A DNA stretch of 32,000 nucleotides from Edaphobacter aggregans (lineage in GTDB: Bacteria; Acidobacteriota; Terriglobia; Terriglobales; Acidobacteriaceae), in the NCBI RefSeq assembly GCF_003945235.1, contig NZ_RSDW01000001.1, forward strand, positions 3,300,001 through 3,332,000, given 5' to 3'. Both the position numbers and the translations under genes were made by a program. The first letter of the stretch is position 1, and each line of letters begins with the position of its first letter. The notes beneath the pieces are model-generated. The model was not told the DNA's origin. It was given only the letters and a program-made list of their open reading frames with translations, and made no database searches. This document shows positions 21,215-32,000 of the stretch, in pieces.

Positions 21215-22408
21215 CTAAAACGCGGAGATGCCGGTTATGCTCTGTCCGAGGATGAGCGTGTGAATGTCGTGCGTGCCTTCGTAAGTCTTCACGGACTCCA
21301 GGTTCATCATGTGGCGCATGATGGGGTAGTCGTCGGCGATGCCGTTGGCTCCGAGAATATCGCGAGCCATGCGCGCGCATTCCAACGCCATCCACACGTT
21401 ATTTTTCTTCGCCATGGAGATGTGCTGGAAGGCCGCGTTGCCCTGATCTTTGAGCCGGCCCACCTGTAGCGATAGCAATTGCGCCTTTGTGATCTCGGTT
21501 ACCATCCAGGCCAGCTTTTCCTGCACCAGCTGGTGGCTGGCGATGGGTTGATTGCGGAACTGCTTGCGCTGCTTGGCGTACTGCAATGCGACGTCGTAGC
21601 AGGCCATCGCGGCTCCGATAGCTCCCCAGCTGATGCCGTACCGAGCCTGGCTCAGGCACATCAACGGAGACTTCAGCCCATCGGACTTCGGTAGCAGGTT
21701 CGCAGCAGGAATTCGCACTTCCTGCATGGAGAGTCCGGATGTGACCGATGCTCGGAGAGACCACTTGCCGTGGACATCCTGCGCGGAGAATCCGGGGCGA
21801 TCGGTTTCAACGAGGAAGCCACGAACGCGCCAAGCGTCTGGAGAGACGCTCGGTTCTTCTACCTTGGCCCAGATTACCGCGACATCGGCAAGGCTTCCCG
21901 ATGTGATCCACATCTTTTCGCCGTTCAGGATGTAGTTGTCGCCATCCTGGCGGGCGCGCGTACGCATGCCTGCTGGGTTCGAGCCGAAGTCAGGTTCCGT
22001 CAGGCCGAAGCAGCCTAACTTTTCTCCTGTGGTCATCTTCGGCAACCAGAAGGACTTCTGCTCGTCGGAGCCGAAGGTGTAGATGGGGTACATCACCAGC
22101 GCCGACTGCACGCTGACAAAGCTCCGAATGCCGGAGTCTCCGCGTTCGAGTTCCTGGGTGAGCAGGCCGTATTCGACGTTGTTCATGCCGGCGCAGCCGT
22201 AGCCGTCCAGCGTGGCTCCATAGAAGCCCAGTTCGCCCATGGGACGGACGAGTTCCTTGGGGAAGCGGCCGTCGCGGTTGCACTGCTCAATGATCGGGAT
22301 CAGCTTGTCTTCGATAAAGGCGCGTGTGTTGGCGCGGACAAGAAGCTCATCCTCGGAAAGCAGGGCATCGAAACCAATGAAATCTACACCTTGAAACTTG
22401 AATGCCAT
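21215..22408 (-). CDS. gcdH: Glutaryl-CoA dehydrogenase (acyl-CoA dehydrogenase family)
   Basis: 397 aa with acyl-CoA dehydrogenase architecture. Blocks typical of the glutaryl-CoA dehydrogenase subfamily are present: GCFGLTEPDFGSNPAGMRTRA, ILNGEKMWITSG, and the C-terminal YEGTHDIHTLILGQSITGISAF. Confidence 0.8.
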   Translation of the reverse strand: MAFKFQGVDFIGFDALLSEDELLVRANTRAFIEDKLIPIIEQCNRDGRFPKELVRPMGELGFYGATLDGYGCAGMNNVEYGLLTQELERGDSGIRSFVSVQSALVMYPIYTFGSDEQKSFWLPKMTTGEKLGCFGLTEPDFGSNPAGMRTRARQDGDNYILNGEKMWITSGSLADVAVIWAKVEEPSVSPDAWRVRGFLVETDRPGFSAQDVHGKWSLRASVTSGLSMQEVRIPAANLLPKSDGLKSPLMCLSQARYGISWGAIGAAMACYDVALQYAKQRKQFRNQPIASHQLVQEKLAWMVTEITKAQLLSLQVGRLKDQGNAAFQHISMAKKNNVWMALECARMARDILGANGIADDYPIMRHMMNLESVKTYEGTHDIHTLILGQSITGISAF

Positions 22409-22453
22409 CGCTTGGTCATTCTAGTTGATGGCGGCTGCGGAGCCTTCAGATCA

Positions 22454-22523
22454 GGTACTCCTCCCCGTACCTTTGGTCCTAAAGTATTCCATCCAGGTAC
22501 TTTAGGTCTGGACTTGGTCTTGA
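22454..22523 (+). repeat. About 70-nt direct repeat, copy 1 (contains inverted repeat CCTAAAGTA-N11-TACTTTAGG)
   Basis: Aligns by eye with 22598-22668 at roughly four-fifths identity, at a 144-nt period. It has an internal perfect 9-bp inverted repeat. Confidence 0.7.
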
Positions 22524-22554
22524 GTTCCAACGGCGGATTCGCGTGAAGGCTTAA

Positions 22555-22580
22555 CACCGATTTGCACCGATGACACCGAT
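22555..22580 (+). repeat. Three tandem CACCGAT heptamers at 9-10 bp spacing
   Basis: CACCGAT occurs at 22555, 22565 and 22574, within the context ACACCGATTTG CACCGATG ACACCGATTTG. The array lies between the two 70-nt repeats. Confidence 0.65.
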
Positions 22581-22597
22581 TTGTTGTGGGGAGTTGA

Positions 22598-22668
22598 GGT
22601 ATCCCCCTCTCCCGTACTTTTGTTCTAAAGTCTTCTATTTAGATACTTTAAGTCTGGACCTGGTCTGA
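22598..22668 (+). repeat. About 70-nt direct repeat, copy 2 (degenerate internal inverted repeat)
   Basis: See copy 1. Shared blocks are CCCGTAC, TCTAAAGT, TACTTTA and GTCTGGAC.TGGTCT. The internal stem is reduced to TAAAGT/ACTTTA. Confidence 0.7.
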
Positions 22669-22683
22669 TTTTGGTTAAGTGCG

Positions 22684-22714
22684 AAGAGCCCCGGCTTTGG
22701 CCGGGGCTCTTTTT
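22684..22714 (+). terminator. Strong orphan intrinsic terminator, + strand orientation
   Basis: AAGAGCCCCGGC-TTTG-GCCGGGGCTCTT forms a 12-bp stem (GC-rich core GAGCCCCGGC/GCCGGGGCTC) with a 4-nt loop. A run of five T's (22710-22714) begins inside the 3' arm and extends past it. In the - orientation the 3' flank is TTCGCAC, a poor U-tail. No + strand CDS lies upstream within 1.7 kb. Confidence 0.7.
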
Positions 22715-22852
22715 GTCTCTGTTTCTATTATAGCGGGGTGAGAGTAATTAGTTGCCAGACGGATGTTGTTGTGGGGTAATGGGTTAGGTGGGGTTGGGGC
22801 TTGACAGGTTTTTAGTTGGTGTTTTGCGGCGGTGGCGGTAAAACAGAAGGTG

Positions 22853-22910
22853 CCTTCGACACGCTCAGTGCAGGCTCTTTGGCTACGGCGGCAGCCTCGC
22901 TCCGGATGGC
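22853..22910 (+). repeat. Dispersed GC-rich REP/MITE-like element, diverged copy
   Basis: CCTTCGACACGCTCAG...CCTCGCTCCGGATGGC shares its start (CCTTCGAC.CGCT) and end (CGCTC.GGATG.C) with the copy at 22982-23024. Confidence 0.5.
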
Positions 22911-22981
22911 GGGCTTTGGGCCGTGGTTGAAAAGGTTGAGGACTGTGGGAGGATGTAGACCTTCGGGGTCCTTCGGCTGCC

Positions 22982-23024
22982 CCTTCGACTCGCTACGCTC
23001 GCTCAGGGGCCGCTCAGGATGACA
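22982..23024 (+). repeat. Dispersed GC-rich REP/MITE-like element ('GTCATCCTGAGCG...AGCGAGTCGAAGG' family on the - strand)
   Basis: The reverse complement reads TGTCATCCTGAGCGGCCCCTGAGCGAGCGTAGCGAGTCGAAGG. I recognise this as a short repeat family that yields spurious 'VILSE.../...SLRMT' hypothetical ORFs in soil-bacterial genomes. Here it generates the ORF-track entries at 22812-23027 on both strands. Confidence 0.55.
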
Positions 23025-23068
23025 CATTCTGGGGAGAGGGTGAGGCAGAGAAGCACCTGAGAAAGACT

Positions 23069-23102
23069 GAAGCCTCTCAGCAGTGAGGCGGCGAGAGGCT
23101 TC
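23069..23102 (-). terminator. Probable terminator of the korAB operon
   Basis: 10-bp perfect stem GAAGCCTCTC / GAGAGGCTTC with a 14-nt loop, 60 nt downstream of the korB stop. On the - strand it is followed by AGTCTTTCTC, which is moderately U-rich. Confidence 0.5.
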
Positions 23103-23162
23103 GGTCAGAGTGGTACTTCAAAAATAAGCGACGTATTGTGTGCCGCCCGATGCCGTTGCGGG

Positions 23163-24206
23163 TTAGCTGTGTGCCTCCATGATTTCGGCGAGGACTTCGC
23201 GGCTGGGGCGTGTGCGTTCCTGGGGTAGTGTAGCCAGAGGCTCATCCACCATGTTGAGGAGCGAGGTGAAGTCCGGCTTTTGCGTATCGATGTAAAAGAC
23301 GCCGGTGAGGACCTCTCCTTTTGCGTGGGTCTCCATCAGCATCTTCGTGGCATGTATTTTGTCGGTGGGATCGTAGTCTTCGTGCAGTTTGCGCAGGCGA
23401 AGGGAGGATCCATCGTGCAGTTGGACGTTGACGGTGGTGTTGGGATCGTATTCGACTTCGATCTCCTCAAAGTGAGGGACGAAGCCAATCTCGCCGACTG
23501 ATTCTTCGTGTTCCTGCATGTACTTGTAGCTCTTGGTCGAGCCCTCGTGGTCGTTGAAGGTGACACAGGGAGAGATCACGTCCAGCATGACGGTTCCCTG
23601 ATGAGCGATAGCAGCCTTCAGTATGGCTGAGAGCTGCTTTTTGTCGCCGGAGAAGGAGCGTCCGACGAACGTTGCGCCCATCTGGATTGCGAGCGCACAG
23701 GTGTCGATCGCAGGCAGATCGTTGACGACACCGGTTTTCAACTTCGATCCGATGTCGGCGGTTGCGGAGAACTGGCCCTTTGTCAGGCCGTACACACCAT
23801 TGTCCTCAATGATGTAAATCATGGGGACATTGCGGCGGAGCAGGTGGACGAACTGACCCATGCCAATGGATGCAGTGTCGCCATCGCCGCTGATGCCGAT
23901 GGACTTCATCGTCTTGTTGGCAAGCAGCGCGCCGGTTGCAACGGAGGGCATACGTCCGTGAACGGAGTTGAAGCTGAAGGAGCGGGACATGAAGTACGCG
24001 GGCGACTTGGAGGAGCAACCGATGCCGCTCATCTTCATGACGCGCTCGGGTTGAATCCCCATCTCGAAGAAGGCTTCGGTGATGCGTTCTGAGATGACGT
24101 TATGTCCGCAACCGGCGCAGAGTGTGGTTTTGCCGCCGCGGTAATCGAGAACCTGGAGTCCGATGCGATTTGTTTTGGGCCTGGGAGTAACTGGTGTGGT
24201 CGACAT
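23163..24206 (-). CDS. korB: 2-oxoglutarate/2-oxoacid:ferredoxin oxidoreductase, beta (TPP-binding) subunit
   Basis: 347 aa. An N-terminal Cys cluster region (TTLCAGCGHNVISE), a TPP-binding GDGD motif (GISGDGDTASIGMGQFVH) and IIEDNGVYGLTKGQ are present. Its start lies 2 nt after the korA stop. Confidence 0.8.
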   Translation of the reverse strand: MSTTPVTPRPKTNRIGLQVLDYRGGKTTLCAGCGHNVISERITEAFFEMGIQPERVMKMSGIGCSSKSPAYFMSRSFSFNSVHGRMPSVATGALLANKTMKSIGISGDGDTASIGMGQFVHLLRRNVPMIYIIEDNGVYGLTKGQFSATADIGSKLKTGVVNDLPAIDTCALAIQMGATFVGRSFSGDKKQLSAILKAAIAHQGTVMLDVISPCVTFNDHEGSTKSYKYMQEHEESVGEIGFVPHFEEIEVEYDPNTTVNVQLHDGSSLRLRKLHEDYDPTDKIHATKMLMETHAKGEVLTGVFYIDTQKPDFTSLLNMVDEPLATLPQERTRPSREVLAEIMEAHS

Positions 24207-24208
24207 GC

Positions 24209-26059
24209 TTACTCTGCTCCTTCTTGTGCGGCGATCGCGTCGGTGACTGTGCGTGCATCGATGGGAAGTCCGTTGAAGTGGCGGACCGAGTGCAGTTTGG
24301 TGACTTGCGTAGGATCGAGATCGATCTTCAGCAGATTGAACATCTGTGAGTCGCGGTTTTGCTCGACGACGTAGACGCGTTCGTGGGTGGCGACAAAGTC
24401 GTGTATCTCCGACGTAAACGGATAAGCGCGGATGCGAAGATAGTCAGTCGGAAGCTGGGACTCACGCTCCAACTGGTCGCGGCTCTCAAGGACTGCCCAG
24501 TGGCTGGTGCCGAATGCGATGATCCCCACCCGCTGCCGGCCGGTGCCTTCGAGGATTGGTTTAGGGACGAGCGTTCTTGCGGTCTCGAACTTTCGCGCCA
24601 GCCGCAGCATGTTGTTTTCGTAGTCATCGGGCCGCTCGGTATAGAGGGCTTTTTCATTGTGGCCGCTGCCGCGGGTGAAGTAGGAGGCGGCGGGATGGTC
24701 CGTTCCGGGCAAGGTGCGATAGGGGATCGCGTCGCCGTCCACGTCTTTGTAGCGAGCGAAGCCGCCGACCTCTTCGAGCTGTTGGGCGCTGAGAACTTTG
24801 CCGCGCGTGATCGGTTTTTCCGGGTAGTCAAAGGGCTCCGACATCCAGCTATTCATGCCGAGATCGAGATCGGAGAGGACGAAGATTGGGGTCTGCAACT
24901 GTTCCGCAAGATCAAAGGCCTCGATGCCGAACTCGAAGCATTCTTTGACCGTTCCGGGGATGAGCATGACGTGTTTTGTATCGCCGTGGGAGAGCCCGGC
25001 GATGAAGGTGAGGTCGGCTTGCGAGGTGCGGGTCGGCAGGCCGGTGGAGGGACCGGTGCGCTGGATGTCGAAGATAACGCCGGGGATTTCGGCGTAGTAA
25101 CCGTAGCCTGCGAACTCTGCCATGAGCGAGATTCCGGGCCCGGAGGTCGCTGTCATCGAGCGGGCGCCTGCCCATCCTGCACCGAGAACCATGCCGATTG
25201 CGGCGAGCTCGTCTTCGGCTTGCACGATGGCGAAGTTCGATTTGCCGTCCTGCTCGATGCGGTACTTTTTCATGAAATCGATGAGTTGCTCGACGACCGA
25301 AGAGGACGGGGTGATCGGATACCACGTCACGACGGTGACTCCCGCGAACATGGCTCCCATAGCGGCGGCGGCGTTGCCATCGATGATGACTTTGCCGTCG
25401 GTTGCGTTCATGTGCTCGATCACATACGGGTCCTGCTTGGTCAGGGTGCTGACGGCGTAATCGAACCCGGCGTGGACAGCGTTCAGGTTCAGCTCGGCTG
25501 CTTTGACCTTCTTTGCAAATTGTTTGCGAACTGTCTTTTCGACCCACTCCATGTCGATCGATAGAAGGTGCGCGGCGACACCTACGTAGACCATGTTCTT
25601 GACCAGCTTGCGAACCTTCGCGTCCGCGCCTGTGGCGGCGGCTAGCCGGTCGAAGGGCACAGGATAATACGTCAGATCAGAGCGGATCTCATTGAGTTTG
25701 AAGGGTTCGTCATAGATGACTGCCGCGCCGGGAGCGAGGGAAAGCACATCTTCGCGAGCCGTCTCAGGGTTCATGGCGATCAGGACATCGATATCCGCTT
25801 TGCGTGCGACCCATCCGTAGCGGCTGACGCGAATGGTGTACCAGGTGGGAAGTCCCGCGATGTTTGAAGGGAAGAGATTTTTGGAGGAGACGGGCACGCC
25901 CATGCGGAAGATACTGCGAAGAAGGACGTTGTTTGCGGATTGCGAACCGGAACCGTTGACCGTTGCGATCTGAATTGAGAAGTCGTTGACGATCTGCTTT
26001 ACACCACCATCAGGGTCCGATATTGGCTGACCCTGCACTACAAGGCCACTGCTGGTCAT
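24209..26059 (-). CDS. korA: 2-oxoglutarate/2-oxoacid:ferredoxin oxidoreductase, alpha subunit (fused gamma-alpha type)
   Basis: 616 aa. The N-terminal gamma-like domain (IATVNGSGSQSANNVLLRSIFRMGVPVSSKNLFPSNIAGLPTWY) is followed by an alpha/pyrimidine-binding domain (GNAAAAMGAMFAGVTVVTWYPITPSS...GARSMTATSGPGISLM). It is paired with a beta subunit, as in two-subunit KOR/OFOR enzymes. Substrate specificity cannot be read from the sequence alone. Confidence 0.8.
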   Translation of the reverse strand: MTSSGLVVQGQPISDPDGGVKQIVNDFSIQIATVNGSGSQSANNVLLRSIFRMGVPVSSKNLFPSNIAGLPTWYTIRVSRYGWVARKADIDVLIAMNPETAREDVLSLAPGAAVIYDEPFKLNEIRSDLTYYPVPFDRLAAATGADAKVRKLVKNMVYVGVAAHLLSIDMEWVEKTVRKQFAKKVKAAELNLNAVHAGFDYAVSTLTKQDPYVIEHMNATDGKVIIDGNAAAAMGAMFAGVTVVTWYPITPSSSVVEQLIDFMKKYRIEQDGKSNFAIVQAEDELAAIGMVLGAGWAGARSMTATSGPGISLMAEFAGYGYYAEIPGVIFDIQRTGPSTGLPTRTSQADLTFIAGLSHGDTKHVMLIPGTVKECFEFGIEAFDLAEQLQTPIFVLSDLDLGMNSWMSEPFDYPEKPITRGKVLSAQQLEEVGGFARYKDVDGDAIPYRTLPGTDHPAASYFTRGSGHNEKALYTERPDDYENNMLRLARKFETARTLVPKPILEGTGRQRVGIIAFGTSHWAVLESRDQLERESQLPTDYLRIRAYPFTSEIHDFVATHERVYVVEQNRDSQMFNLLKIDLDPTQVTKLHSVRHFNGLPIDARTVTDAIAAQEGAE

Positions 26060-26358
26060 TTAAGAATGTTTCCCTTCCATGTGTTGTAGATACGTCCAGA
26101 TCGTTTCAACCTCGCGTTTACGGCACAGTCGCAGGTTAGACTCAACCTTCCCCGGAATTGTAGTCCAGAGAGGGGTGTATCTGGCTTGCTGTGTTTTTTG
26201 CGTGTTACCCCGCATATTGGTCGTTAATGCGGGCGCATTGGATTTACAGGATTTATTGGGGTTTCGAGGAGGTGGGCTGGGGTCTCGCTCACCCCGGAGG
26301 CGAATGTTTCGTCCATCTGGGCAAGACACCCGGACAACATTTGCGACAGGGTGCCCGC

Positions 26359-26397
26359 CGCCCAGAACCGAAGCGATAACGGTTCGGGCGCATTTTT
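26359..26397 (+). terminator. Terminator-like / attenuator-like hairpin about 55 nt upstream of nuoA
   Basis: CGCCC(A)GAACCG-AAGCGATAA-CGGTTCGGGCG forms 11 bp with one bulged A. It is followed by C-A-TTTTT-G. Confidence 0.45.
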
Positions 26398-26453
26398 GAG
26401 TTAAATGGTTCGCACCCATCTCCGAATCTGGTACGGTGGGGTGGTCGAATGCT

Positions 26454-26825
26454 ATGACAAACGATTCCTATCTACCTGTCATTGTGCTCCTGCTCGCGGC
26501 CCTGGCTTTTACCGTGTTACCGCTGGCGTTGGCTTGGTTATGGGCGAAGAAGTTTTCTCCGGGCAAGCCTGGCCCAAGCAAGAATGCGATCTACGAGTGC
26601 GGGCTTGAATCGGCAGACGACGCCTGGATGCAATTCAAGCCCGGCTATTACCTGTATGCGATCATTTTCCTGATTTTTGATGTGGAGGCGGTCTTTCTTT
26701 TGCCGTTTGCAGTGGCATTTACTGGTTTCACAGCACCAGAATGCATCGCCATGATGGGCTTCCTGCTTTTGCTGGTAGAAGGACTGGTGTGGGCCTATCA
26801 GAAAGACGTGCTGGTTTGGACTTGA
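26454..26825 (+). CDS. nuoA: NADH-quinone oxidoreductase (complex I) subunit A
   Basis: Three-TM small protein with the conserved YECG...F...[21 protein letters not shown] block. I prefer ATG 26454 as the start. The ORF-track GTG at 26436 is the alternative. Confidence 0.85.
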
Positions 26826-26841
26826 TGTCGATATAGAAGCA

Positions 26842-27540
26842 ATGCTGTTGCAACAAAGCTGGGACCATTTGGATGTTGAAACGCCCAAGGGTTTTGGAAT
26901 GGATGAGCAGCTAAAAATCGAGTTGGGCAAGCAGGGTATTTTCGCTACGACCTTGCAGGACCTCTATAACTGGGGTCGCAAGAACTCTTTGTGGCCGTTG
27001 AACTTTGGTCTGGCCTGCTGCGCCATCGAGATGATTGCCACAACGATGGCGCGCTATGACATGGCTCGATTCGGGGCGGAGGTTTTCAGGGCGTCTCCGC
27101 GGCAGGCGGACTTGATGATTGTCGCCGGCACAATCACTAAGAAGATGGCTCCGCAGGTTGTGCGCCTCTATAACCAGATGCCGGAGCCGAAGTACGTTAT
27201 CTCCATGGGCGCCTGCGCGATCTCTGGCGGCCCGTTCAAGCAGGGCTACAACGTTCTGAAGGGGATTGATCGCTATATTCCTGTCGATATATACATTCCC
27301 GGCTGTCCGCCGCGGCCCGAGGCTCTGATCGACGGGCTCATGGCTTTGCAGAAGAAGATCGACGACCAGCAGTTAACAGGGGATCATAAGCCACGCCATC
27401 TAGATCCCGATGAACCGAGCGAGTTCATTGTGCCGCAATTTGGAGCGCATGACCTGGAGCCGCCACAGAATCCCGAGGTCTGGCGTCCTCCCTTGGTCAA
27501 CATTTCCTTAGCAGGTGGGGATGACTCTGGAACCGATTAA
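26842..27540 (+). CDS. nuoB: Complex I subunit B (N2 Fe-S cluster subunit) with extended acidic/Pro-rich C-terminus
   Basis: [27 protein letters not shown] and PGCPPRPE supply the four N2-cluster cysteines. An alternative start at ATG 26899 (MDEQL...) would fit homologue lengths better. About 55 residues follow the conserved LQKKI. Confidence 0.85.
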
Positions 27541-28153
27541 ATCCGAGATTGAAGCGAATGTTTCCGGTTGCCGGTTGGAGATTCTTCTCAACGGTAGCCC
27601 GTCGGGCCAGCTTTCTCTGCTGATCGATCCGGAGCATGCCTTGGCAGTGGCCAAGTTTTTACGTGACGCGGAGCATCTACGATTCGACTACTGTTCGAAC
27701 GTTACCGGCATCGATTGGCCGGGTAAAGAGATCTCTGTAACGGTGAAGACGAAAAAGATTGTGGATGGGGTGGAACAAGAGGTTGAAGAGATTCAAAAAA
27801 GCCAATCCGCGGGGTGTCTGGAAGCGGTATACCACCTTTACTCCATGGAGAAAAAGCATGGTCCGGTCATTCTCCGAATGCGAACCGAAAACCGCACCGA
27901 CCGAGTCAGCTTGCCCTCTCTTACGCCGATCTGGCGAGGTGCGGAGTTTCAAGAGCGGGAGATCTTCGATCTGTATGGAGTCGTCTTCGACGGGCACCCC
28001 GATTTAAGGCGCATTTTGATGTGGGATGGGTTTGAAGACCATCCGATGCGCAAAGACTACGTTGAACCGGATGACTACGAGTACGAACCGACGGCGCATG
28101 ATGAAGTGCTGCAAAAGGCGAAACGGCATTTAAATAGAGCGGGGTGGCCATGA
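27521..28153 (+). CDS. nuoC: Complex I subunit C (30-kDa subunit)
   Basis: [43 protein letters not shown] is the signature NuoC block. ATG 27521 is preceded by AGGTGGGG and overlaps the nuoB 3' end by 20 nt. Confidence 0.85.
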
Positions 28154-29310
28154 GTGCCGCTACACTTCCCGCCGTGCATTTGACGCCGAAACCATCTATC
28201 GATGGTAGCGAGGGCCAATTGCTGGAAGTTTCAATGGGGCCTCAGCATCCCTCGACGCACGGCGTCTTTCGCATGGATGTTGTACTAGATGGCGAGCAAG
28301 TTGTGAAACTGAAGCCGGTGTTTGGCTATCTGCATCGCAATCACGAAAAAATAGCGGAGCAGGAGACCTATCTCGGTTCGATGCCTTACACCGATCGGCT
28401 CGACTACTTTTGCTCCATCACGAATAACTGGGCTTATGCGCTCGCTGTCGAAAAGCTGGCTGGCATACAGGTACCGGAACGCGCCGAGTACATCCGCATC
28501 ATTACAGGCGAGCTGACCCGGCTACAGAACCATGCCTGCCTGATCGGATTCTTGATGCAGGATATGGGCGCAAGCGGGACGCCGCTGATGTACGCCTTTC
28601 GTGAGCGCGAGAAAATTCTCGACCTCCTCGAGGCACTCACCGGATCGCGCATGATGTGCAACTACATGCGATTCGGCGGCTGCCGTGTGGATTTTCCTAC
28701 CGGCTGGCTCCAGCAGGCACAAAAGGTCGTCGAGGCGTTTCCGCGTTTTCTGGATGAATATGAACGGCTGCTTGCGGAGAATGAAATTCTTATGGCGCGT
28801 ACGCAGGGCATTGGCGTGCTGCCCAAGGAACTGGCCGTGAATGCCGGCGTTACCGGGCCAATGCTGCGGGCTTGCGGCGTCAATTATGACATTCGCAAAG
28901 TGGACAAGTATGGCATCTACGATCGCTTTTCTTTTCGAGTCCCACTGGGCGAACACGGCGATGTTTATGACCGCTACATGATCCGCCTGCTTGAGATGCG
29001 TGAGTCGGTCAAGATTTTGCAGGAAGCCATCAGAGACATTCCGTCTGGCGCGATTATGGATGCGAAGACCAAGATCCGTGGATTCCGCCCGAAGGCAGGA
29101 GAAGCCTACGGTCGAATCGAAGCGCCGAAGGGAGAACTTGGCTTTTATCTGATCAGTGATGGGTCGCCGAATCCGTACCGCTATCGCGTGCGCCCACCCA
29201 GCCTGATCAACCTCACTGTGCTGGAGGACATGTGTCTCAGCCATAACGTGGCAGACGTCGTTGTGATTTTAGGAAGTGTGGATATTGTGCTGGGCGAGGT
29301 AGATCGATAA
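28150..29310 (+). CDS. nuoD: Complex I subunit D (49-kDa subunit)
   Basis: [25 protein letters not shown], the MCNYMRFGG region and C-terminal [12 protein letters not shown] are present. Its start overlaps the nuoC stop as ATGA. Confidence 0.9.
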
Positions 29311-29327
29311 ATAAGTAGGGGGCATCT

Positions 29328-29939
29328 GTGTTTGGTGAAGGTCTTCTGAAGGGTATGGCGGAAACGGCTCGAAATTTTCTGGGCAGTTACGTCAGTAAAG
29401 ATCGGCTGACTACCGTTCAGTTTCCAGAAGAGCGCGTGGCACCCATCGAGGCGTCGCGCAATTTTCCCTTCCTTGTTTATGACGGCAAGGACTGGCAACA
29501 GGGAATGCGCTGCGTCTCCTGCCTGATTTGCGAAAAGGAATGCCCGCCCAAGTGCATCTTCATTGAAAAGAGCACAGATAAAAAGCCGGATGCAACCGGT
29601 AAACCACAGTTTTATCCTGCTGTTTTCAATATTGATGTTTCGGTCTGCATGAGTTGTCAGATCTGCGTCGAGGTCTGTCCTTTCGACGCCATCAAAATGG
29701 ATGTCGCATTTGAATTGAGCACAGATAACCGCTTCGACGACCTGCTCTGGGACAAACAACGATTGGCCAAGTCGAACGAATACTATGGCAAAATTCACCC
29801 TACAGAGGCAGCTGCAGTGGATGCGCAATTGGCCGAGGGCAGAGCCAAGCTGGAGGCGAAGTCGAAAGTGACTACGGAAGCAAAGGCGGTCGGGGCCGCA
29901 GTACCTTCCGCACAAACAGTGAGCGGAGCCACAGAATAG
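29328..29939 (+). CDS. nuoI: Complex I subunit I (2x[4Fe-4S] ferredoxin-type subunit) with Lys/Ala-rich C-terminal extension
   Basis: Two CxxCxxCxxxCP motifs are present (CVSCLICEKECP, CMSCQICVEVCP) in a NuoI-like context (FPEERV..., NIDVSVC). GTG start with AGGGGG 5 nt upstream. About 55 residues extend beyond the conserved core. Confidence 0.8.
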   Translation: MFGEGLLKGMAETARNFLGSYVSKDRLTTVQFPEERVAPIEASRNFPFLVYDGKDWQQGMRCVSCLICEKECPPKCIFIEKSTDKKPDATGKPQFYPAVFNIDVSVCMSCQICVEVCPFDAIKMDVAFELSTDNRFDDLLWDKQRLAKSNEYYGKIHPTEAAAVDAQLAEGRAKLEAKSKVTTEAKAVGAAVPSAQTVSGATE

Positions 29940-30032
29940 AAATGACCTTGTCAACGACGGGTATCGAACTTACGATGGCTGCGTGTAGCACCGCAGCAAG
30001 CCAGGTGCGATCTTTTCTGAGTGCGGTGCGTG

Positions 30033-31208
30033 ATGCCTGAAACGATCGATCAGATATTTGTGATAGTGAAGCATTGGCTCTTGGGCTATGTACCAGTCGA
30101 AGTGCAGCCGTTGTTCTCTGCGTTGCTTTCGGTTGTGCCTATCCTCGTAGTGTTTCCACTACTGTTCGCGATTACGACTCTTCTTGAGCGCAAGGGCCTG
30201 GGACGAATCCAGAACCGCTACGGTCCAAACCGTACGGGTCCTTATGGCCTTCTTCAACCCATTGCCGATGCTGTGAAATCGCTGACCAAGGAAGATGTTG
30301 TTCCTAATACTGCGGATGAGGTGGTGCATTTCCTGGCGCCGTTGTTGCTCGTGTCGGCAGCGCTTCTGGCCTATGCGGTTTTGCCTGTTGGACGGAACAT
30401 GATCGTTGCCAATCTGAATGCGGGAGTGCTGTTTTTTTTCGCAGTTGGTTCTCTGGTGGAACTCGCGGTCTTCATGGCTGGTTGGTCCAGCCGAAATAAA
30501 TACTCCTTGCTTGGAGCAATGCGCGCTATTGCGCAGATGATCAGTTATGAAGTGCCTTTGGTGCTGGCGTCTATCGTTGTCATTATGGCTGCGGGCTCGC
30601 TTTCGACCGTGGCGATTGTAAAGGCGCAGGCTGGTTATGCGGGAATCTGGCCGCACTGGTTTGTCTTTACACCATGGGGATTCGCCGGGTTTGTTCTTTT
30701 CATGATTGCAGCGACTGCTGAATCCAATCGTTCGCCATTTGACCTGCCTGAAGGGGAATCTGAAATCATCGCGGGCTATTACATTGAATACTCAGGCTTC
30801 AAGTTCGCGCTCTTTTTCCTCGGCGAATACCTTGGCATGTTTGCGACCAGTGGAATGGCGATCACGCTGTTCCTTGGGGGGTGGGCTGCGCCGTTTTCTT
30901 TTCTAACCTGGGTTCCATCGTATTTTTGGTTTTTCTCGAAGCTATTGGTGTTGATCGCAGGATTCATCTGGGTCCGCGGCACTCTTCCGCGCTTGCGTAT
31001 GGATCAGCTGATGAACTTTGCATGGAGGTTCATGCTGCCAATGGCGTTGCTCAATATTTTCATCGCCGGGGTTTGGCATTTCATGCCTGCCGGACTTTCG
31101 CGATGGTTGGTATGCATCATTCTGGTTGCTGCTCCTTGCATCTTGTTGAGCCGCGGCCTGAAGAAGGAAAAGAAGCTTCAAGTTCGAACATATCGTTTTG
31201 CCGAATAA
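30033..31208 (+). CDS. nuoH: Complex I subunit H (ND1 homologue)
   Basis: LERKGLGRIQNRYGPNRTGPYGLLQPIADAVK, SRNKYSLLGAMRAIAQMISYEV, ESNRSPFDLPEGESEI and YSGFKFALFFLGEY are all NuoH signatures. The start is ATG 30033, or GTG 30021 as in the ORF track. Confidence 0.9.
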   Translation: MPETIDQIFVIVKHWLLGYVPVEVQPLFSALLSVVPILVVFPLLFAITTLLERKGLGRIQNRYGPNRTGPYGLLQPIADAVKSLTKEDVVPNTADEVVHFLAPLLLVSAALLAYAVLPVGRNMIVANLNAGVLFFFAVGSLVELAVFMAGWSSRNKYSLLGAMRAIAQMISYEVPLVLASIVVIMAAGSLSTVAIVKAQAGYAGIWPHWFVFTPWGFAGFVLFMIAATAESNRSPFDLPEGESEIIAGYYIEYSGFKFALFFLGEYLGMFATSGMAITLFLGGWAAPFSFLTWVPSYFWFFSKLLVLIAGFIWVRGTLPRLRMDQLMNFAWRFMLPMALLNIFIAGVWHFMPAGLSRWLVCIILVAAPCILLSRGLKKEKKLQVRTYRFAE

Positions 31209-31238
31209 AGAAATGTGTTGGAGTAGGTCGAGATCGAG

Positions 31239-31739
31239 ATGACAGTAGCCTTCCTCATCCTTGCCGCGCTGACGACCGCTGGAATGGCGGCGGCGATGGG
31301 TCTGCGCAACCTCGTTCATTGCGTACTGGCTTTGACGCTGGGTTTTGCTGGCTTGGCTGCACTGTATCTTCAGCTTGGCGCGCAGTTTGTCGGGTTTACG
31401 CAGATTCTTGTTTATGTTGGAGCGGTGGCAATCCTTGCCGTGTTTGCGATCATGATGACTCAGAGTGCGGGGTCGATGACGCGACCGGTTTTCTCCTCCG
31501 CTTGGTTAACAGGCAGTCTTGTTGCTGGTTCCGTCTTCGCCGTTCTTGCGTGGGCGATTTGTTCCGGCGCGGTGTCACGCAAAATGTTGCCTCCAGAACC
31601 TCAAGCTACCGTCCATCAAATCGGTGACGCACTCATGCATAGGTTTGTTTTGCCGTTGGAGATCATTGGGCTTCTGTTGACTGTTGCGTTGATCGGCGCA
31701 GTCGTCCTCGCGATGCACGGAAAACGGGAGACGCAATGA
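31239..31739 (+). CDS. nuoJ: Complex I subunit J (ND6 homologue)
   Basis: 166-aa polytopic protein with LGAQFVGFTQILVYVGAVAILAVFAIMM and C-terminal LPLEIIGLLLTVALIGAVVLA. It occupies the nuoJ position between nuoH and nuoK. Confidence 0.85.
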   Translation: MTVAFLILAALTTAGMAAAMGLRNLVHCVLALTLGFAGLAALYLQLGAQFVGFTQILVYVGAVAILAVFAIMMTQSAGSMTRPVFSSAWLTGSLVAGSVFAVLAWAICSGAVSRKMLPPEPQATVHQIGDALMHRFVLPLEIIGLLLTVALIGAVVLAMHGKRETQ

Positions 31740-32000
31740 GCTCGCTTACGAGTTATCTACTCTTGTCCGCCCTCTTGTTTTCTATCGGCTTGGCTGGCGC
31801 GTTAACGCGGCGCAGTGCAATTCTTGTTCTGATTGGAATTGAACTGATGCTCAACGCGGCAAATCTGAACCTCCTCGCATTCTGGCGTTATGGACCGAAT
31901 CCCGCGGCATTGACCGGGATTATGTTCACGATTTTTTCAATCAGTGTTGCGGCAGCAGAAGCGGCGGTTGGATTGGGCCTTATCCTCGCTGTTTACCGGC
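31736..32000 (+). CDS. nuoK: Complex I subunit K (ND4L homologue), 3'-truncated by the window edge
   Basis: This ORF is absent from the ORF track because no stop codon falls inside the window. ATG 31736 overlaps the nuoJ stop as ATGA. My translation is MSSLTSYLLLSALLFSIGLAGALTRRSAILVLIGIELMLNAANLNLLAFWRY...AAAEAAVGLGLILAVYR, which carries the NuoK signature GIELMLNAANLN. Confidence 0.85.
   Translation, partial: MSSLTSYLLLSALLFSIGLAGALTRRSAILVLIGIELMLNAANLNLLAFWRYGPNPAALTGIMFTIFSISVAAAEAAVGLGLILAVYR

Follow-up and report, generated by a model that had tools for sequence, protein, structure and literature searches.

Genes for a complex I without nuoEFG lie back to back with korAB, genes for a putative 2-oxoacid:ferredoxin oxidoreductase, in the 32,000-nucleotide stretch of the Edaphobacter aggregans genome analysed here (the window), raising the question of what this complex oxidizes. 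A sequence-only reading had proposed that it takes up the ferredoxin reduced by KorAB. We examined this proposal through the gene content of the operon, a second complex I in the same genome, and the neighborhood of the cluster across relatives.

Gene content and boundaries of the locus

Gene identities in the window were assigned by Pfam and NCBIfam profile searches (Table 1). These bore out the order that had been read from the letters alone, nuoA, B, C, D and then I, H, J, K with tight junctions. On re-reading the junctions, nuoB and nuoC overlap by 20 nt (given the ATG at 27521 as the nuoC start), while nuoC/nuoD and nuoJ/nuoK overlap as ATGA at 28150-28153 and 31736-31739, respectively. 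The profile search found zero NuoE, NuoF or NuoG domains from nuoD to nuoH, in line with the earlier reading. Inspection of the sequence downstream of nuoK, which that reading had called for, revealed nuoL, two nuoM and nuoN. The whole operon thus comprises 12 genes, nuoA-B-C-D-I-H-J-K-L-M-M'-N, the first eight of them inside the window, and it is bordered after nuoN by a convergent RND efflux operon, so that nuoEFG are absent downstream as well.

Table 1. Features of the kor/nuo locus. Positions with the prefix L003 are counted along locus L003, on which the operon runs on past the window.
Feature	Position	Strand	Description
korB	23163..24206	-	347 aa, beta subunit, two-subunit 2-oxoacid:acceptor (ferredoxin) oxidoreductase-like; Pfam TPP_enzyme_C + PFO_beta_C
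korA	24209..26059	-	616 aa, fused gamma-alpha type alpha subunit-like; Pfam POR + POR_N
divergent kor/nuo spacer	26060..26453		between korA and nuoA
nuoA	26454..26825	+	Pfam Oxidored_q4; alternative GTG start at 26436
nuoB	26842..27540	+	232 aa; NF011394 356.7 bits, above cut-off; C-terminal extension
nuoC	27521..28153	+	Pfam Complex1_30kDa
nuoD	28150..29310	+	Pfam Complex1_49kDa, 313.6 bits
nuoI	29328..29939	+	203 aa, precedes nuoH; TIGR01971 70.6 bits, below cut-off
nuoH	30021..31208	+	Pfam NADHdh, 376 bits
nuoJ	31239..31739	+	Pfam Oxidored_q3
nuoK	31736..32000	+	truncated by window end; full gene at L003:736-1047
nuoL	L003:1163-3268		701 aa
first nuoM	about L003:3265-4821		TIGR01972 458 bits, above cut-off
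second nuoM	L003:4850-6361		TIGR01972 431 bits, above cut-off
nuoN	L003:6352-7851		last gene of operon

The korA product scored 570 bits against the superfamily model TIGR03710, above its cut-off, and its best solved relative is 6n2n_A (E 1.3e-65). The korB product reached 212 bits against TIGR02177 (cut-off 261.9), and no equivalog cut-off was reached by either protein. The "kor" label is used here for a two-subunit 2-oxoacid:acceptor oxidoreductase without assignment of a substrate.

The two transcription units diverge across a spacer of 376-394 bp, depending on the choice of nuoA start, close to the earlier estimate of about 380 bp. It contains just two long open reading frames, of 119 and 106 aa, whose predicted products are Arg-rich and of low complexity; on visual inspection both look non-coding. 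No consensus promoter or consensus terminator was found in the spacer, and an Rfam search gave no match there or elsewhere in the window. The spacer sequence is not conserved from locus to locus. Its left end is homologous to sequence upstream of korA in relatives, and its right half to the spacer between nuoA and the pyruvate:ferredoxin oxidoreductase (PFOR) gene in the relative L006, whose upstream sequence is too short to judge further. In the closest relatives of E. aggregans, a PFOR gene lies between korA and nuoA, accompanied in L005 and L038 by a DHO-dehydrogenase-like gene. Together with the spacer homologies, this suggests that the direct kor/nuo pairing in E. aggregans probably resulted from a deletion.

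The operon encodes a 2M-type complex I

The operon almost certainly encodes a complex I of the "2M" type of Chadwick, Hemp, Fischer & Orphan (2018, ISME J 12:2668), as that type is relayed in PMC6606698, PMC9040806 and PMC11636273, with a full Q-module, four antiporter-like subunits, a longer NuoL clamp helix and no N-module of its own. In E. aggregans and likewise in relatives, two NuoM genes (profile match TIGR01972) sit between NuoL and NuoN. By sequence comparison, the lateral helix of this NuoL (NuoL1) contains 24 residues more than that of its paralog NuoL2, and an AlphaFold2 model gives a single 75-residue helix (595-669) ahead of the last transmembrane helix, with pLDDT of ~73-76 to residue 650 and lower values after it. 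The insertion amounts to about one subunit width in the amphipathic helix HL, as the 2M type requires; in the verrucomicrobial relative L072, which has a single NuoM, NuoL is ~25 residues shorter at the lateral helix. NuoE, NuoF and NuoG were sought within the operon here and at ~45 related loci, and none was found. The earlier likening to 11-subunit complex-I relatives thus gives way to a 12-gene 2M complex that has an additional NuoM and a longer helix in NuoL.

As judged by motif reading, the Q-module ligands are intact. The four ligands of cluster N2 (NuoB Cys 59, 60, 125 and 155) are all present, NuoD retains the quinone-site motifs GPQHPSTHG and GYLH (His and Tyr), and NuoI carries both cluster motifs as two copies of CxxCxxCxxxCP. 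Among the pump subunits, both NuoM copies of the E. aggregans operon keep the Glu of TM5, the Lys of TM8 and the Glu of TM12. The TM7 Lys is retained in the first NuoM (47/47) and replaced by Leu in the second (45 of 45 orthologs). The canonical charged residues are therefore incomplete in at least one of the four pump subunits, although their status as family-defining is our assumption.

The 2M type, its gene order in A. capsulatum and the idea of ferredoxin as partner have all been published, and the cluster itself is ordinary for Acidobacteriaceae. As far as the type is relayed in the three papers above, it shares with our operon the second nuoM, a NuoL lateral helix longer by ~24-26 residues, the lack of nuoE and nuoF in the operon, and ferredoxin as the proposed partner. 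The "unusual complex I" of A. capsulatum 161 (ACP_2565-2576; PMC11636273, Table S3), likened here by gene order, belongs to the same family, with 12 genes in identical order, nuoI before nuoH, a nuoM-II and no E/F/G, and a canonical nuo operon is also present in that genome; by contrast, its korAB (ACP_0328/0329) lies far from the cluster (PMC11636273). The Nitrospira 2M complex ("clade 3") differs in having no nuoH and an enlarged nuoG (PMC6606698). Since the E. aggregans cluster has nuoH and no nuoG, it probably represents another branch of the 2M type.

Cyanobacterial and plastid NDH-1 also lacks NuoEFG, and ferredoxin is its established donor (ferredoxin:plastoquinone oxidoreductase). The best solved relative of NuoL1 is NdhF1 of this complex (430 bits versus 328 for Thermus Nqo12), whereas NuoD1 is slightly nearer to Thermus Nqo4 than to NdhH. 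NDH-1 has three pump subunits, compared with four in the E. aggregans cluster, and the ferredoxin-docking subunit NdhS (PF11623), the one oxygenic-specific subunit sought, was not found in the complete E. aggregans genome, while a control search was positive in Synechococcus.

A second, canonical complex I in the same genome

A genome-wide check, also suggested by the earlier reading, did find a second, 14-subunit nuo set. The locus L004, 2.7 Mb away, is ordered A-C-D-E-F-G-H-J-K-L-M-N and contains nuoEFG, including the sole NuoF of the genome; the set is completed by a lone nuoB (L085) and a lone nuoI (L086) elsewhere. Its Q- and P-module subunits are homologous to those of the 2M complex, at 32-45% identity between paralogs except for NuoB (60%). 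Unlike the 2M complex, the canonical one has NuoEFG, a single NuoM and a shorter NuoL helix.

Neighborhood of the cluster across relatives

The upstream neighborhood was compared among 31 close acidobacterial loci, those for which 4 kb or more of upstream sequence was available. A korAB and/or PFOR gene lies upstream of nuoA in 22 of them (korAB in 12, korAB with PFOR in 6, PFOR only in 4), and neither in the other 9. Three arrangements occur: divergent korAB, co-directional korAB, and an inserted PFOR gene, divergent and 88-270 bp from nuoA. No kor or PFOR neighbor was found at the 16 Verrucomicrobiota-labelled loci, the 4 loci with other labels, or several Granulicella loci. Among species-representative genomes that carry the cluster, kor or PFOR stands beside it in 5 of 14. 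In the tree, only one section of the acidobacterial clade shows the adjacency, and every instance fits a single ancestral juxtaposition in one sub-clade. Because such a single event suffices, kinship may account for much of the pattern.

KorA orthologs are present in 116 of 120 genomes of the family, compared with 13 of 120 for the 2M cluster, so the ferredoxin reduced by KorAB is reoxidized otherwise in most relatives. KorAB is thus a core enzyme of Acidobacteriaceae and not a dedicated partner of the 2M complex, which looks like a patchy, horizontally acquired gene set. PFOR is not enriched with the cluster either (6/13 holders versus 59/107 others). The 2-oxoacid:ferredoxin enzymes beside the cluster in part of the family speak modestly, on comparative grounds, for ferredoxin as the redox partner of the complex.

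Electron donor and direction of electron flow

Ferredoxin has already been proposed as the partner of 2M complexes, as a quinone/ferredoxin couple (PMC6606698, PMC9040806). In the mechanism that we favor, with a probability of roughly one half for the mechanism as a whole, ferredoxin, a low-potential one-electron carrier, would dock on the exposed NuoI/NuoD face, and electrons would pass via N6a, N6b and N2 to reduce quinone, the larger driving force paying for an additional pumped proton. Reduced ferredoxin could plausibly come from KorAB in E. aggregans and from PFOR in its close relatives, and NADH would be left to the separate canonical complex I. The original proposal survives in part: the lack of N-module genes in the operon, the intact Q-module ligands and the recurrent oxidoreductase neighbors speak for it, whereas a dedicated partnership with kor does not stand. 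Its suggested link to the neighboring gcdH and M28 peptidase genes is unsupported; the "gcdH" gene encodes an acyl-CoA dehydrogenase scoring below every curated specificity cut-off. Against the favored mechanism, the 2M operon contains no gene for a ferredoxin or a docking subunit.

It is quite possible that the kor/nuo and PFOR/nuo adjacencies are meaningless, arising from a chance ancestral juxtaposition that was inherited and then rearranged, with another carrier or module as the donor. Such an origin would agree with the confinement of the adjacency to part of the acidobacterial clade, its absence from Verrucomicrobiota and several Granulicella loci, the near-universal presence of Kor with or without the cluster, the unconserved spacer, and the probable deletion behind the pairing in E. 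aggregans. It accounts less well for a closeness to nuo that outlasted inversion of korAB, and for PFOR, a ferredoxin-reducing enzyme of unrelated architecture, being set exactly at the divergent promoter region. Because nuoEFG are encoded in the same genome, the 2M complex could also share the N-module in trans. Its Q- and P-modules would then borrow the single NuoEFG, yielding two NADH:quinone oxidoreductases of different pumping stoichiometry. We consider this unlikely, although there is just one nuoEFG set, NuoF-like matches occur in 5/5 verrucomicrobial genomes with the cluster that were tested, and the complex of A. capsulatum has been named an NADH dehydrogenase (PMC11636273). NuoEFG is embedded in the complete canonical set, and the interface subunits are far apart between the two sets (NuoD 45%, NuoI 38% identical). 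Orphan EFG genes occur in none of the genomes tested; in G151, G152 and G155 at least, the NuoF-like match adjoins the genome's own canonical NuoD. Menaquinone is the quinone usually reported for Acidobacteriaceae, and with this acceptor the driving force from NADH, estimated from standard potentials, would fall below the need of a fifth proton.

More doubtful still is operation in reverse, in which the proton-motive force would drive quinol electrons up to ferredoxin for KorAB or PFOR acting as synthases, or for other ferredoxin-dependent reactions. Reverse electron transport is a published hypothesis for the 2M-type complexes of Nitrospira and Manganitrophus (PMC6606698, PMC9040806), a fourth pump would render the uphill step feasible, and the oxidoreductase neighbors are compatible with both directions. 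However, the E. aggregans genome encodes a 2-oxoglutarate dehydrogenase E1, and E. aggregans belongs to the Acidobacteriaceae, known as aerobic heterotrophs. Expression of korAB in A. capsulatum was highest, at ~2000 TPM, in the most oxic condition tested, which fits oxidative use. Against the favored ferredoxin link, nuoA-C of the A. capsulatum cluster went up and korAB down at low O2; nuoD-N went down like other listed respiratory genes (PMC11636273).

Returning to ferredoxin oxidation, a fuller account can be offered tentatively: the acidobacterial 2M complex may be a fifth-proton-pumping ferredoxin:menaquinone oxidoreductase that came from Verrucomicrobiota and was later drawn beside KorAB and PFOR, its extra NuoM, with the lysine relocated from TM7 (now Leu) to TM5, forming a mechanistically distinct pump module. 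If so, it would provide an energy-conserving exit for reduced ferredoxin in aerobic soil heterotrophs otherwise without one, Rnf not having been found in the E. aggregans genome. No biochemical characterization of 2M complexes was found in the literature examined, and to our knowledge the electron donor of any 2M complex has never been demonstrated. The cluster occurs in culturable Acidobacteriaceae such as A. capsulatum and Granulicella, which are easier to grow than Nitrospira and thus offer a practical system for distinguishing ferredoxin from NADH, and four protons from five. The oxidoreductase neighborhood adds a little to the comparative case for ferredoxin and also hints at growth conditions worth trying. 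A minor feature of the complex is the Ala/Lys/Glu-rich C-terminal tail of NuoI, ~55 aa long and, with 5 K and 1 R against 6 E and 1 D in E. aggregans, not net basic, a point against the ferredoxin mechanism; its beginning, SNEYYxKIHPTEAAxVD...EKAKxEAKAK, is conserved in both Acidobacteriota and Verrucomicrobiota.

The nuo cluster encodes a 2M complex I

The window (3,300,001–3,332,000) belongs to a complete genome of 6.15 Mb, and its closest public relatives are Granulicella-like Acidobacteriaceae. Searches against Pfam and NCBIfam bore out every gene name of the sequence-only reading, with the kor pair, korB and korA, encoded on the minus strand and nuoA, B, C, D, I, H and J plus the beginning of nuoK on the plus strand, and the junctions were as it described them, a 20-nt overlap of nuoB and nuoC and ATGA overlaps at nuoC/nuoD and nuoJ/nuoK. 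The 15 kb past the window end (L003) supplied the remainder of nuoK, NuoL (701 aa), two NuoM-type genes scoring 458 and 431 bits against TIGR01972, and NuoN, followed by a convergent CzcCBA-type RND efflux operon. The full operon thus comprises 12 genes, A-B-C-D-I-H-J-K-L-M-M'-N, and the absence of nuoE, F and G noticed in the window extends to the whole of it, including the downstream part.

As described in PMC6606698 and PMC9040806, the 2M complex I of Chadwick et al. 2018 has two hallmarks, an additional NuoM and an elongated helix in NuoL. Compared with its canonical counterpart NuoL2, NuoL1 of this operon has 24 extra residues inside the C-terminal lateral helix, and AlphaFold2, run with an alignment of 35 sequences, predicted one unbroken helix at residues 595–669 before the last transmembrane helix, with moderate confidence up to about residue 650. 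A Verrucomicrobiales locus (L072) shares the order A-B-C-D-I-H-J-K-L but encodes only one NuoM, and the lateral helix of its 635-aa NuoL is shorter by about 25 residues; it is a natural control tying the length of this helix to how many pump subunits are encoded. The window cluster is a 2M complex I of 12 genes, in which the Q-module is intact and genes for an N-module are absent.

The 2M type had already been reported in Acidobacteriaceae before this analysis. In PMC11636273 (Table S3), A. capsulatum 161 is given an "Unusual Complex I" (ACP_2565-2576) whose genes run nuoA, B, C, D, I, H, J, K, L, M, M-II, N; the rows for E, F and G are empty, and a canonical nuo operon is tabulated beside it. 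A. capsulatum belongs to the same bacterial family as E. aggregans, and its complex has the 12-gene order of the window cluster and no E, F or G, but its korAB genes lie distant from the cluster, whereas those of E. aggregans adjoin nuo.

A second, canonical complex I in the same genome

A search for a second nuo cluster found one with nuoEFG (L004), in the order nuoA-C-D-E-F-G-H-J-(110-aa ORF)-K-L-M-N and without nuoB and nuoI. Exactly one NuoF in the genome scored above the family cut-off, 2.7 Mb from the window. A single nuoB and a single nuoI were located about 5.3 Mb from the canonical locus, among unrelated neighbor genes; together with the L004 genes they make up a complete set, so the genome codes for a full canonical NADH-dependent complex I besides the window cluster. 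Identities between the window complex (locus 1) and the canonical one (locus 2) were 45% for NuoD, 44% for NuoH, 40% for NuoL, 38% for NuoI and 60% for NuoB. In scoring against solved structures, NuoD2 reached 437 bits with Thermus Nqo4 and NuoD1 369 bits; such scores indicate only that locus 2 appears canonical and locus 1 divergent from everything solved.

Coordinates of features in the window and in related loci
Feature	Location	Strand	Remarks
Genes with no visible link to the nuo cluster	window 3-20963		three proteins combining CarboxypepD_reg and an outer-membrane beta-barrel; two proteins with BNR/sortilin repeats; M28 peptidase carrying PA and transferrin-receptor dimerisation domains; BlaI/MarR-type repressor; ferric-reductase-like membrane protein
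Acyl-CoA dehydrogenase gene region	window 21215-23162		
NuoI tail	window 29766-29939		
Second NuoM	L003:4850-6361		
Canonical nuo locus (L004)	genome 5,996,469-6,011,271		
110-aa ORF between nuoJ and nuoK	L004:6953-7285	-	no family match
Single nuoB	L085:1771-2388, genome ~0.71 Mb	-	scores as NuoB
Single nuoI	L086:1863-2906, genome ~0.58 Mb	-	scores as NuoI
PFOR of a related locus	L005:4559-8191	-	1210 aa, between korA and nuoA
DHO-dehydrogenase-like gene of the same locus	L005:3537-4676	-	379 aa, between korA and nuoA
Verrucomicrobiales locus with one NuoM	L072:9694-14915		

A possibly shifted lysine in the second NuoM

In the second NuoM, the conserved Lys of TM7 is replaced by Leu (Leu215; GFAI[L]AGLWPFHTW) in 45 of 45 orthologs, and a Lys (Lys140) stands six residues past the TM5 Glu (EIVIIPKYF) in all 31 aligned orthologs. 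Where this Lys stands, Ala is found in the first NuoM and Met in the canonical one, and both retain the TM7 Lys. In L072, too, the single NuoM shows Leu at the TM7 site. AlphaFold2 modeled the second NuoM confidently (pLDDT 92). This second NuoM may have relocated the charge, or may be a pump module that works differently.

Gene neighborhood of the operon

The spacer between korA and nuoA measured 376–394 bp, and its two long ORFs, whose translations were Arg-rich and of low complexity, looked non-coding by eye. An Rfam search of the spacer gave no match, a scan for consensus promoters and terminators found none, and an alignment of this spacer from seven loci in which kor and nuo diverge revealed no conserved element. 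Downstream of korB and on the same strand, beyond a 750-bp stretch without a convincing ORF, lies the gene taken for gcdH by the sequence-only reading; it does encode an acyl-CoA dehydrogenase, but reached no curated specificity cut-off. An ortholog adjoins kor in seven related loci.

We tabulated the neighbors for loci whose sequence extends 4 kb or more beyond nuoA on its upstream side. Among 31 loci labeled Acidobacteria, 12 had korAB only, 6 had korAB and PFOR, 4 had PFOR only and 9 had neither, and neither was present in any of the loci labeled Verrucomicrobiota (n = 16) or otherwise (n = 4). The PFOR is a 1210-aa pyruvate:ferredoxin oxidoreductase, divergent from nuoA at a distance of 88–270 bp. 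PFOR and the DHO-dehydrogenase-like gene lie between korA and nuoA in close relatives, in L005 and likewise in L009, L016, L018, L023, L026, L038 and L054. Three arrangements were distinguished: divergent korAB, korAB upstream in the same direction as nuo, and a divergent korAB-(DHO-dehydrogenase-like gene)-PFOR. When mapped on the tree, all of them fit a single ancestral juxtaposition with a later inversion, an insertion and losses. In the E. aggregans genome PFOR is absent, as is the DHO-dehydrogenase-like gene between korA and nuoA. Its spacer is composite: the left end matches what lies upstream of korA in relatives, whereas L006 has the counterpart of the right half between PFOR and nuoA. 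Its nearest tree neighbors, L005 and L006, carry PFOR, which makes the direct kor/nuo pairing a probable deletion scar.

Candidate electron donors

NuoB1 retains all four cysteines of N2, both CxxCxxCxxxCP motifs are present in NuoI1, and NuoD1 keeps the quinone-site motifs GPQHPSTHG and GYLH. With these intact, the locus-1 complex is predicted to be a quinone reductase that needs electron input at NuoI. Ferredoxin is the best candidate donor (probability about 0.5), because an input module is never part of the operon, the sole NuoEFG belong to the complete second set, OFOR genes cluster with the operon in part of the family, and the larger potential span from ferredoxin to menaquinone, estimated from standard potentials, would pay for a fifth proton; electrons would enter via NuoI and reduce the quinone. 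That the potential span pays for the extra proton is a published argument. The sequence-only reading, in which a nuo cluster without nuoEFG may oxidise the ferredoxin that KorAB reduces, is reasonable, yet the hypothesis was already published and the complex is of a known kind. At its start the NuoI tail has SNEYYxKIHPTEAAxVD...EKAKxEAKAK, common to Acidobacteriota and Verrucomicrobiota, and continues as a variable Ala/Pro/Lys-rich stretch; as a lysine-rich lure for ferredoxin it is a weak candidate, being conserved but not net basic in E. aggregans.

Sharing of NuoEFG in trans, as proposed for Syntrophobacter by Spero et al., would instead make NADH the donor of the 2M complex, and we consider it unlikely. 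Five verrucomicrobial cluster genomes were examined for a cluster without NuoF, and all five have NuoF-like genes, which in at least three (G151, G152 and G155) adjoin canonical NuoD. Operation in reverse, from quinol to ferredoxin, appears somewhat less likely still, and some other donor takes what probability remains.

Separately from the choice of donor, the OFOR neighborhood could be a historical accident, a serious possibility that we rate slightly short of even. The new comparative support for the ferredoxin hypothesis is modest and comes from one sub-clade only. Representative cluster genomes with kor or PFOR beside the cluster numbered 5 of 14 (E. aggregans, G083, G245, G169 and G201), and in at least 7 of the 14 these genes lie clearly elsewhere. 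A dedicated kor-2M module is argued against by the phyletic profiles of 120 family genomes, in which neither KorA nor PFOR depends on the 2M cluster: KorA orthologs (at least 60% identical) occur in 116 and PFOR in 65, without enrichment of PFOR in genomes with the cluster (6/13) versus those without (59/107). In the A. capsulatum expression data listed in PMC11636273, korAB expression is high at 10 µM O2, about 2000 TPM, and drops at 0.1 µM, where nuoA-C of the unusual complex go up and nuoD-N go down like the other respiratory genes listed; this pattern neither supports nor clearly refutes kor-nuo co-regulation. E. aggregans also has a 2-oxoglutarate dehydrogenase E1 and a second OFOR; Rnf was not found in its genome.

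Distribution and origin of the cluster

The cluster was scored as present where a genome had a second-NuoM ortholog of at least 68% identity; such orthologs occurred in 13 of 120 other family genomes, about one per genus, and, in a 150-genome sample of the phylum, in no family but Acidobacteriaceae. Five unpublished genomes enter these counts, two in the family sample (G157, G173) and three in the phylum sample (G023, G145, G048), and none of them has the 2M cluster; leaving out G157 and G173 gives 13/118 for the cluster and 114/118 for KorA. Relatives with 77–87% identical NuoD and the same gene order were found in Acidobacteriaceae and Verrucomicrobiota. In a tree of NuoD, NuoH and NuoM', nearly all acidobacterial sequences formed one clade nested in a verrucomicrobial grade, and L067, labeled Acidobacteriota, was placed among Verrucomicrobiota. 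This nesting and the sparse occurrence in the family suggest transfer from Verrucomicrobiota to Acidobacteriaceae, the direction being tentative because the tree came from a quick search and was rooted on a long-branched paralog. Six cluster contigs (L036, L048, L052, L061, L071 and L073) come from MAGs labeled Akkermansia muciniphila, Bifidobacteriaceae, Bifidobacterium or Klebsiella, labels that are probably taxonomy or binning errors; L036 and L048, the only two of the six in the tree, fell among Verrucomicrobiota.
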